A stretch of 9,411 bases of DNA from Escherichia coli (GCF_003334335.1 NZ_QOWQ01000066.1), one strand, 5' to 3'; shown: positions 4,105 to 5,589, counted from the stretch's first letter. Notes: generated by a model from the sequence alone, not told the origin. Numbers and translations are program-made.

Positions 4105-5589
4105 TTACTTCGCTCTCAGCTTATTGTAGTGATAACCCGAGGTAAAAATACCAGAGACATCAGACAACTTTAAACTGGCTATCTGGGGAAGCAGAACATA
4201 CATGGTTTTTCCTTCCGGCACGACAGAAAGCCTGAACTGAGATTCAAGAATGTTCAGCAATGCGTTCAGTTTTTTCCTGTTTCTGAACCGGCCCGGGCCA
4301 CACTGGAGAATATAATTTTTCCTGACACGGGGCGGGCATTCTCCGCGGCACTCCTCAATGAGCCAGTCGAGCAGCTCCCGGGCGTCCTGCAGCTGCAGTT
4401 CAGATTCGTCAGGTAACGCAAATAATTTTTTATATTCATCTGTGTACCACGAACTTATTACGACAGCAGACGTCATGATATCGGCAGAGATTTTCCCTTC
4501 ACCATAGCTGAAATACTGAAATAACGCTGCAATTCTTGCAATGTTTTCTGTTTTTTTTGAAACATGTCCCCGAAACGGGCTTAAGGGTCCGGAAGGGGAT
4601 AAATCCTGCTCCAGAACATTATAGTGCTCAATAAATATTTTTTGCGCTTCAGGCGAAAAATGCAGACAATACCGTTCATCCTCACTGGATTTTTCAATAC
4701 TGCCTCTGGCCAGTTCCATTAATCGTTCATGAAATGCCGTTAATGATCCTCCCGGAATCACAGCTCCGTTAATAAAGCGTTTCCCCTGCGTGGTTGCAGG
4801 TTTACTGATAAGACAACGGGCAAGAAAACCACTGTCCCTGGCAACAGAACCTTTTCGCTCCATATATCGGTCAAAAAGACCGGGTTGCACCATGAGGGAT
4901 AACGTCATTCTGGCATTTTCAATCATCTGTTCGGGTTCATTCTTTCTGTCCACAGACAATACAGAGCCATCCCACATTTTGTTAATAAAAGGCAACTCAG
5001 ACAGGGTATATCCATCAAATATAATACCGGCTTCATCTGACATAATACCAACTGAACGCCATTTACCACAAAGCTGATTCTTAATTGCCGCAGTCGTGGC
5101 ATCATTAAAAATGAATTTATACCTCACAGGTTCTTCCGCACTGTTTTTCTGAAGTACTTCCAGTTGTCTGAGGGTTTCTGACTCATCCGCGCCTTTGCGG
5201 AGTTCTTTATTCAGTTTTGACAACAATGCTTTTTTCTGAGCCTTTAAAAGCTCTTCCTTGTTTTTCCAGACAGCCAGTTCACTTTTGTATCTGGAATATA
5301 ACTGCATCTCCTGCTGGTACAGGGGCTTCATTAATAATTTGTCCACTGCGGTTTTTCGTTCTCCGGACTCGGCAAGCGTCAGGAAAAAAAGAGAGACCGG
5401 CCCCCGCAGTGTATTCAGTCTGCAGACATCAATCAGATTCTGGCAGACAAGTGAAACAGCGCCCAGGGCAGACGCTGCCACAAGCCCAAGGGGAGCCTGC
5501 GTAATTTGCTGAGCTTCAATAACGGCATCACGAATGAGTGGAGGCAGCGAACTCAGGGGAAACTCATCACAAGGCTGACCGAATGACAT
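4105..5589 (-). CDS. YfjI-like protein (probable DUF3987 family), ~494 aa
   Basis: ORF 4105..5658 (-). Start placed at ATG 5589 (MSFGQPCDEF...), which has GAGG about 6 nt upstream on the minus strand; the track start at 5658 has no SD. Long, protein-like ORF resembling YfjI-type island proteins by size and context. DUF3987 assignment is from recall, not a search. Confidence 0.6.
   Translation of the reverse strand: MSFGQPCDEFPLSSLPPLIRDAVIEAQQITQAPLGLVAASALGAVSLVCQNLIDVCRLNTLRGPVSLFFLTLAESGERKTAVDKLLMKPLYQQEMQLYSRYKSELAVWKNKEELLKAQKKALLSKLNKELRKGADESETLRQLEVLQKNSAEEPVRYKFIFNDATTAAIKNQLCGKWRSVGIMSDEAGIIFDGYTLSELPFINKMWDGSVLSVDRKNEPEQMIENARMTLSLMVQPGLFDRYMERKGSVARDSGFLARCLISKPATTQGKRFINGAVIPGGSLTAFHERLMELARGSIEKSSEDERYCLHFSPEAQKIFIEHYNVLEQDLSPSGPLSPFRGHVSKKTENIARIAALFQYFSYGEGKISADIMTSAVVISSWYTDEYKKLFALPDESELQLQDARELLDWLIEECRGECPPRVRKNYILQCGPGRFRNRKKLNALLNILESQFRLSVVPEGKTMYVLLPQIASLKLSDVSGIFTSGYHYNKLRAK

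Follow-up and report, generated by a model that had tools for sequence, protein, structure and literature searches.

A YfjI-family gene that most likely encodes an MCM-like helicase lies in a replaceable segment of an Escherichia coli genomic island, convergent to an AlpA-like gene

Profile comparisons and linkage to primases have placed DUF3987 proteins among the MCM-like replicative helicases of superfamily 6 (SF6) (PMC4889955, PMC5862659), and they usually, although not universally, come with a fused or adjacent primase (PMC4889955). AgaPH, a PriCT-DUF3987 protein that unwinds DNA in the 5'-3' direction in a Walker A- and Walker B-dependent manner, is the helicase for the replication of a pAgo-carrying integrative mobile element (PMC11724360). 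In the PICMI satellites, organised as int-alpA-(up1)-prim, the prim gene, whose detection model uses DUF3987/DUF5906 profiles, is required for satellite replication, and excision is triggered by alpA (PMC10803314). The SF6 prediction, the AgaPH helicase and the PICMI replication gene together make outdated the view, expressed in a first-pass annotation of the DNA studied here, that DUF3987 proteins are functionally uncharacterised. In the CP4-57 element of E. coli K-12, alpA, yfjI and yfjJ follow one another on one strand (alpA>yfjI>yfjJ), an order that the same annotation had given correctly. CP4-6 carries YagK and lacks YfjI, and CP4-44 lacks alpA, yfjI and yfjJ altogether.

The window, that is, the whole stretch of 9,411 nucleotides that was analysed, belongs to an E. 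coli genomic island. Its gene content was compiled from the ORF listing, the RefSeq annotation and profile searches (Table 1). In strain B7A, the region lies within a large composite island flanked by fec/dnd and nan/fim genes, and the window backbone is colinear with CP4-44-like islands, the GTPase, IS102/isrC RNA and Ag43 genes all being present. The GTPase gene, which is divergent from yfjI, opens the CP4-44-like backbone (GTPase, isrC, Ag43 ... CbeA/CbtA). An Rfam scan at E <= 0.1 yielded the IS102/isrC RNA 3' of the GTPase gene as its sole match. No tyrosine integrase was found in the window, nor does the B7A annotation show one in the 20 kb to either side, no primase was present among the window ORFs or the B7A neighbour genes, and no recombinase or invertase was encoded in the window.

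Table 1. Features of the window, with positions counted from its first nucleotide
Feature	Position	Strand	Remarks
IS100 end	1-76
Zn-ribbon gene	61-438	-
YfjJ/YagK-like gene, 'inovirus Gp2 family'	692-1261	-	YagK_YfjJ_C, E 1.1e-47; REP_ORF2-G2P, E 2.5e-5; 36% identical to K-12 YfjJ
67-aa ORF	1458-1661	+
hha remnant	~2016-2149	-	frameshifted
AlpA-like HTH gene (alpA')	2880-3086	+	68 aa; Phage_AlpA, E 3.9e-7
ORF200	3181-3783	+	200 aa; conserved partner of the AlpA-like gene
Replaceable segment	3800-6724		2.9 kb; yfjI, its palindrome and the 1.1-kb AT-rich unannotated spacer
Hairpin	4006-4045		between convergent ORF200 and yfjI; perfect 17-bp stem, no U-tract
YfjI-family gene (yfjI)	4105-5589	-	494 aa, intact; equals RefSeq CDS 'YfjI family protein' of strain B7A
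AT-rich non-coding spacer	5590-6724		36-40% GC; between divergent yfjI and GTPase genes; unannotated to 6818 (1.2 kb)
Palindrome	5620-5655		imperfect, ~35 nt; 31-66 nt upstream of the yfjI start; repeat search
YeeP/YfjP-type GTPase gene	6819-7691	+	RefSeq; 50% identical to K-12 YfjP
IS102/isrC RNA	7808-8044		Rfam
Start of Ag43	right of 8044

The first-pass annotation had described yfjI as convergent to the AlpA-like gene and had placed the YfjJ-like gene at a distance of about 3 kb on the other side. Both points were confirmed: yfjI and the AlpA-like gene converge, with ORF200 between them, and 2.8 kb separate the yfjI stop from the YfjJ-like gene. The YfjJ-like gene is located on the far side of alpA, on the strand of yfjI and after four intervening features. 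Read from yfjI, the order is yfjI > [ORF200 < alpA' <] ... yfjJ >, the foreign pair being reversed in between, while yfjI and yfjJ retain their canonical mutual order and strand. The window thus shares with K-12 CP4-57 a YfjI-family gene, the palindrome upstream of it, a downstream YfjJ-family gene on the same strand and a YfjP-type GTPase module. Unlike CP4-57, it has neither a cognate alpA upstream nor an integrase, its yfjJ is distant with the alpA'-ORF200 pair inserted reversed, and yfjI is divergent from the GTPase gene, whereas the two are co-directional in CP4-57. An invertible segment, or inversion switch, was considered and rejected, since inverted repeats at the ends and an invertase in the window were both missing.

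The yfjI gene starts with an ATG at 5589, preceded by a GAGG Shine-Dalgarno sequence 6 nt upstream. The Pfam domain DUF3987 (PF13148) spans the product (E 1.8e-95, model positions 1-363 of 364), confirming the DUF3987 assignment over the full length, and no second domain was detected by Pfam at either end; all homologues, whether close or distant, likewise consist of a single domain and are about 470 aa long. The protein was 53% identical to K-12 YfjI (b2625) over 465 aa and matched PHROG 2373, 'DNA helicase', with an E value of 2.4e-81. In an alignment of 55 sequences from many phyla, A73, S75, G76, E77, R78 and K79 of a Walker A-like motif, AESGERK(S/T), were invariant, as were E186 of the Walker B motif, (M)SDEAG, and several arginines. 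In a 20-sequence enterobacterial alignment, S184 and G188 were also invariant and D185 nearly so.

The AlphaFold model of YfjI (pLDDT 89, pTM 0.80) was compared with the PDB using Foldseek. The top 28 matches were all MCM chains, comprising eukaryotic MCM2-7 and archaeal MCM subunits, followed by ComM and RuvB, with a probability of about 1.0. The TM-scores of the MCM and ComM matches were low (about 0.25-0.33, at 9-17% identity), as expected from a partial-domain match. MCM and ComM AAA+ helicases being the best fold matches agrees with the SF6 assignment (PMC4889955), although the N-terminal OB/Zn domain of MCM is absent in YfjI. A sequence search of the PDB gave zero matches, so that only the fold search was informative. 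Residues ~395-466 of the whole-protein model follow an H, E, H, H, E, E secondary-structure pattern that resembles a winged helix, and residues 473-494, in the C-terminal extension of roughly 25 residues, are disordered and form a tail that differs between alleles. Taken together, these data indicate that the window YfjI is most likely an MCM-like AAA+ (superfamily 6) ATPase acting as a hexameric DNA helicase, and we infer the helicase activity from its homology to AgaPH and MCM. Likened by domains, AgaPH and YfjI share the DUF3987 ATPase core with its Walker A and B motifs, but AgaPH additionally carries PriCT at its N-terminus and is partnered by a PrimPol gene, neither of which accompanies the window YfjI. 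A search of a phage collection returned three weak matches (21-26% identity) annotated as helicase or primase/helicase, indicating that YfjI is not a typical phage gene. The dN/dS of yfjI between its class A and class B alleles was 0.33, compared with 0.10 for the GTPase gene and about 0.07 for canonical yfjI pairs, in which dS is saturated, pointing to purifying selection that is looser than on either of these.

The AlpA-like protein was only 22% identical to K-12 AlpA. It was 70-76% identical to the AlpA proteins of modules without YfjI from Klebsiella, E. coli and Yersinia, and its nearest relatives among the sampled YfjI loci (about 45%) were found in Rahnella and Pectobacterium, where alpA lies between yfjI and yfjJ. 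Judged by these identities, the gene belongs to another subfamily and is not the orthologue of CP4-57 alpA. ORF200 had no match in Pfam, NCBIfam, PHROG or PADLOC; its structural model was mediocre (pLDDT 70) and had no match in a PDB fold search. Homologues about 60% identical occur across Enterobacterales, always directly after the AlpA-like gene. A second, widespread module type, found in Klebsiella, E. coli and Salmonella, is arranged as GTPase < X < / alpA' > ORF199 > Gp2-like > Zn-ribbon > and lacks YfjI, and in Yersinia ruckeri a Gp2-like gene precedes alpA'-ORF197. The recurrence of the pairing across these modules indicates that AlpA' and ORF200 form a conserved pair with its own, separate history.

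The gene order around yfjI in other species was determined from 80 YfjI loci fetched from one-genome-per-species contigs, of which the 76 with a full-length YfjI were counted; AlpA-, YfjJ-, integrase- and GTPase-family ORFs were located by iterated HMMs. An AlpA-family ORF stood just upstream of yfjI on the same strand in 42 of the 76 loci, an integrase further upstream in 42, a YfjJ downstream on the same strand in 28, and both alpA and yfjJ were in canonical positions in 23, many of the loci lacking these neighbours being cut by contig ends. In none of the 76 did an AlpA-family ORF lie on the other strand within 10 kb of yfjI. Essentially all Enterobacterales loci followed the canonical order, with alpA at about -250 to -440 and yfjJ in most cases at about +1600, as did many beta- and gamma-proteobacteria. 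In the canonical module, yfjJ follows yfjI at about 0.15-0.3 kb and a tyrosine integrase lies 2-5 kb upstream; compared with it, the window has no same-strand upstream alpA, no nearby yfjJ and no integrase, and has kept the palindrome. The int, alpA and DUF3987 core of the PICMI satellites (PMC10803314) matches the canonical YfjI modules, while the window differs from PICMI in lacking int and in its convergent alpA. In our analysis, native YfjI is best explained as the replication helicase of small integrative elements with the core int > alpA > yfjI > yfjJ. In a distance-based neighbour-joining (NJ) tree, midpoint-rooted and with one long branch, the proteins of the window, B7A and GN05652 formed a long-branched clade nested inside the enterobacterial clade, whose remaining members have alpA directly upstream of yfjI, indicating that the convergent layout is derived.

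The palindrome upstream of yfjI corresponds to the TGCTATTTCnGCnATTAATAGCGGAATAGC element located between alpA and yfjI in canonical modules, where a conserved palindrome stands about 50-65 nt upstream of yfjI. It was aligned with the copies from K-12, ECONIH5, Buttiauxella and CFT073, and the Escherichia albertii version is a perfect 15+15 palindrome. Each locus contains its core, GC.ATTA.TAGC, exactly once and invariably at that position upstream of yfjI, and YfjI-less backbones lack it. The window has retained an identical core, with partial degradation of the outer arms. The similarity between the window and canonical loci stops just upstream of the palindrome, suggesting that yfjI was transferred together with about 70 nt of its control sequence and without alpA. 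The palindrome, conserved upstream of yfjI across Enterobacterales, is an operator or origin candidate. A strong Rho-dependent terminator upstream of yfjI has been described in K-12 (PMC9160355).

Across 1868 genomes, the AT-rich spacer upstream of yfjI is conserved along with the gene, and it was never annotated. Within its 1.1 kb, we found no convincing iterons or tandem repeats as a signature of an origin, and tblastn revealed no remnants of alpA (searched over 5590-6818), intA, yfjH or 'X'. A promoter and terminator scan gave promoter-like sites no more frequently than in shuffled sequence. On the other side of yfjI, the hairpin has a predicted folding energy of -27.2 kcal/mol as RNA (z -6.7), and it is not conserved in the class B allele.

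Two sister E. coli islands, HET6 and J-8, have the same backbone as the window, namely Zn-ribbon <, Gp2 <, 67-aa >, (hha <), alpA' >, ORF200 >, ... GTPase >, followed 3' of the GTPase gene by Ag43 > in HET6 and by an IS21-family element in J-8, and their annotations contain no YfjI at the corresponding position. The blastn homology of the window to both islands ends at 3799, 16 nt past the ORF200 stop, and restarts 94 nt ahead of the GTPase gene, at 6725; the latter boundary is also shared by a 68%-identical type-2 module. In HET6 and J-8, the slot is filled with other material, including, directly upstream of the GTPase gene, a hypervariable gene of 290-305 aa, 'X', whose products are merely 20-25% identical between islands. 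A 105-nt remnant at 3877-3981 in the window corresponds to the 3' end of an alternative allele of the ORF200 slot. The same backbone without YfjI, together with such sharp breakpoints, places yfjI in a replaceable segment.

Conservation analyses put the layout in roughly one third of the complete E. coli genomes. Many of them matched the whole window at 99% identity or more with at least 99% of it covered. At least 80% of the whole window was colinear in 1074 of 5426 complete genomes, and at least 80% of positions 2800-6900 was found in one colinear place in 1185, arguing against a sequencing or assembly quirk. Regarding yfjI itself, 1159 of the 5426 genomes carried an allele with at least 99% identity, 62 an allele with 95-99% and 645 an allele with 90-95% ('class B'), while 424 had only K-12-like or other copies of 60-80% identity. 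The window type is therefore the commonest YfjI context in E. coli (1866 genomes versus 424 with only distant copies), and its yfjI was full-length in 1839 genomes. The class B genomes, which include the uropathogen CFT073 and whose yfjI is about 94% identical at the DNA level, showed the same gene order and orientation, as did the CFT073 PAI-pheV copy. Unlike the window, they carry a 36%-identical allele of the ORF between alpA' and yfjI and differ in the last ~25 yfjI codons and in the hairpin; hha is intact in CFT073 and frameshifted in the window. A layout common to both allele classes must be old and fixed, and it represents the majority YfjI context rather than a strain peculiarity.

We favour, with a probability of about 0.7, an account in which the window is a mosaic, with an intact MCM-like helicase gene in an exchangeable slot and its original core dismantled by recombination. 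The int>alpA>yfjI>yfjJ core would have been taken apart in the island lineage to which the window belongs, and yfjI would have travelled with its short upstream region and the conserved palindrome, leaving alpA behind, to land in the slot of a CP4-44-like backbone (Zn-ribbon < YfjJ-like < ... AlpA-like > ORF200 > [slot] GTPase > Ag43). A different module type, normally devoid of YfjI, would have contributed the AlpA-like gene and ORF200, and yfjI would thus have become convergent with a non-cognate alpA. Transcription of yfjI would presumably be driven by a promoter of its own within the AT-rich spacer and not as part of an alpA-led unit, so that co-regulation with alpA would have been lost.

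A simple inversion of yfjI within a CP4-57-like operon, arising through site-specific or through homologous recombination either in the present strain or in one of its recent ancestors, would also place the gene on the strand opposite to an AlpA-family gene, and the 53% identity to K-12 YfjI is compatible with it. However, no inverted repeat of 14 nt or longer brackets yfjI, the AlpA-like gene belongs to another subfamily by its identity to K-12 AlpA, ORF200 intervenes between alpA and yfjI, and yfjJ is found beyond alpA, in its usual order and strand relative to yfjI. Moreover, the same backbone is known without yfjI and with clean breakpoints, and the identical layout recurs in more than 1800 genomes and in two allele classes that have diverged by about 6%, all of which makes such an inversion very improbable. 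The term 'inverted', as applied to yfjI in the first-pass annotation, does not fit these data; from its proposal of rearrangement or independent assembly, the departure from the canonical order and the independent assembly of modules stood, and a simple inversion did not. It is equally hard to believe that the convergent layout is ancestral and the CP4-57 order derived. That the convergent form is the commonest context in complete E. coli genomes speaks for it, but alpA>yfjI(>yfjJ) is the order in all sampled Enterobacterales outside the clade as well as in many beta- and gamma-proteobacteria, the convergent form occurring in none of them, the window clade falls inside the canonical copies, and the palindrome that stands between alpA and yfjI in canonical loci is partly degraded in the window. 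The synteny comparison thus identified an order that is common in E. coli but derived.

The principal alternative is that yfjI has become a passenger in slow decay. The relaxed dN/dS, together with the degraded palindrome arms, indicates that yfjI could be drifting, and it might be a functionless relic of a dismantled replication module that hitch-hikes in a successful island. The long branch, the variable and disordered C-terminal tail, the sister backbones that manage without yfjI and the lack of integrase, primase and cognate alpA nearby are consistent with this. Nevertheless, we consider a relic rather unlikely, as the ORF is full length in 1839 genomes, all the family-invariant catalytic motifs are intact, dN/dS is clearly below 1 and the core of the upstream palindrome has been kept. 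A more speculative scenario, to which we assign a still lower likelihood, is that yfjI and its palindrome constitute a self-contained origin/operator-helicase cassette that can be swapped into a recombination hot spot flanked by alpA'-ORF200 and the GTPase gene, where it might give the composite island AlpA-independent replication or interfere with related satellites or phages using the same site.

Being old, fixed and present in about one in three E. coli genomes, the layout is ordinary island patchwork. It is not unusual within the species and can be seen in thousands of public annotated genomes, including that of CFT073. The most common E. coli context of YfjI is a mosaic that has uncoupled the putative helicase gene from the alpA it normally accompanies, and the K-12 gene order is an unsafe template for annotating E. 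coli islands. Only two points may be worth an experiment, the conserved palindrome upstream of yfjI and the sharply bounded exchange slot, and neither alters the overall picture of ordinary island mosaicism. Finally, Serratia marcescens MSU97 carries the arrangement GTPase < yfjI > yfjJ > without any alpA, which resembles that of the window minus the inserted alpA'-ORF200 pair. The presence of a divergent GTPase-yfjI pair in Serratia suggests that part of the layout may predate E. coli.

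The gene encoding an AlpA-like protein and ORF200, an ORF of 200 aa, formed a pair that was conserved in Klebsiella, Salmonella, Yersinia and E. coli. On the 3′ side of this pair there was usually a Gp2-like gene, along with Zn-ribbon genes, and beyond these came defence cargo (BREX, dnd). Family and fold searches with the ORF200 protein returned no match. In the CFT073-type islands, the ORF200 allele was only 36% identical to that of the window, whereas the flanking genes reached about 90%. A 105-nt remnant with 74% identity to the 3′ end of the ORF occupying the ORF200 slot in CFT073-type islands was found 3′ of ORF200. 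This trace of an alternative ORF implies that the allele in the slot was replaced through recombination. A hairpin with a perfect 17-bp stem (-27 kcal/mol, z -6.7) lay between ORF200 and the convergent yfjI, the DUF3987 putative helicase gene. It lacked a U-tract, and its conservation did not extend to the class B allele, the ~94%-identical yfjI variant of CFT073-type islands.

Coordinates of the features in the window and in the loci fetched for comparison (L numbers)
Feature	Location	Strand	Remarks
67-aa ORF	window 1458-1661	+	annotated hypothetical; backbone-conserved
hha (haemolysin expression modulator) paralogue remnant	window ~2016-2149	-	frameshifted
AlpA-like gene + ORF200 pair	window 2880-3783		relatives in L086-L096
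Remnant of alternative ORF	window 3877-3981
Hairpin	window 4006-4045
yfjI-upstream palindrome	window 5620-5655; L002 ~5915-5945; L023 5′ of yfjI
IS102/isrC small-RNA match	window 7808-8044	+	67.8 bits, E 6e-10
Gene X	HET6 (L097) 8170-9087; J-8 (L098) 10572-11444; L086 6284-7198; L091 4526-5539
yfjI-GTPase region, Serratia marcescens MSU97	L031 8778-12462

A palindrome of about 30 nt (TGCTATTTCnGCnATTAATAGCGGAATAGC) was conserved 50-65 nt 5′ of yfjI genes across Enterobacterales, with one copy per locus, and the E. albertii version was a perfect 15+15. The palindrome is a candidate operator or origin; no description of it was found in the literature searched.

The YeeP/YfjP-type GTPase gene is directly preceded in related islands by a hypervariable gene, X, whose products (258-337 aa, no Pfam match) shared 20-25% identity from island to island. 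The window carried neither X nor any trace of it. The IS102/isrC match sat between the GTPase gene and Ag43, a placement shared with CP4-44 of K-12. In MSU97, a distant YfjI (33% identity) was encoded divergently from a YeeP-type GTPase gene, with yfjJ coming next and no alpA in the region, indicating that the juxtaposition of GTPase gene and yfjI also occurs outside E. coli.

At the left of the window, positions 1-76 shared 100% identity with sequence from the right-hand (istB) end of J-8's IS100 copy, and the match to most genomes started only at position 77. In the Zn-ribbon gene (61-438), the insertion has taken the place of the 3′ end. The 67-aa ORF encoded a zinc-ribbon motif (CxxC...CxxC) followed by a hydrophobic helix. 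CFT073 and J-8 carried an intact hha paralogue at the position of the remnant.
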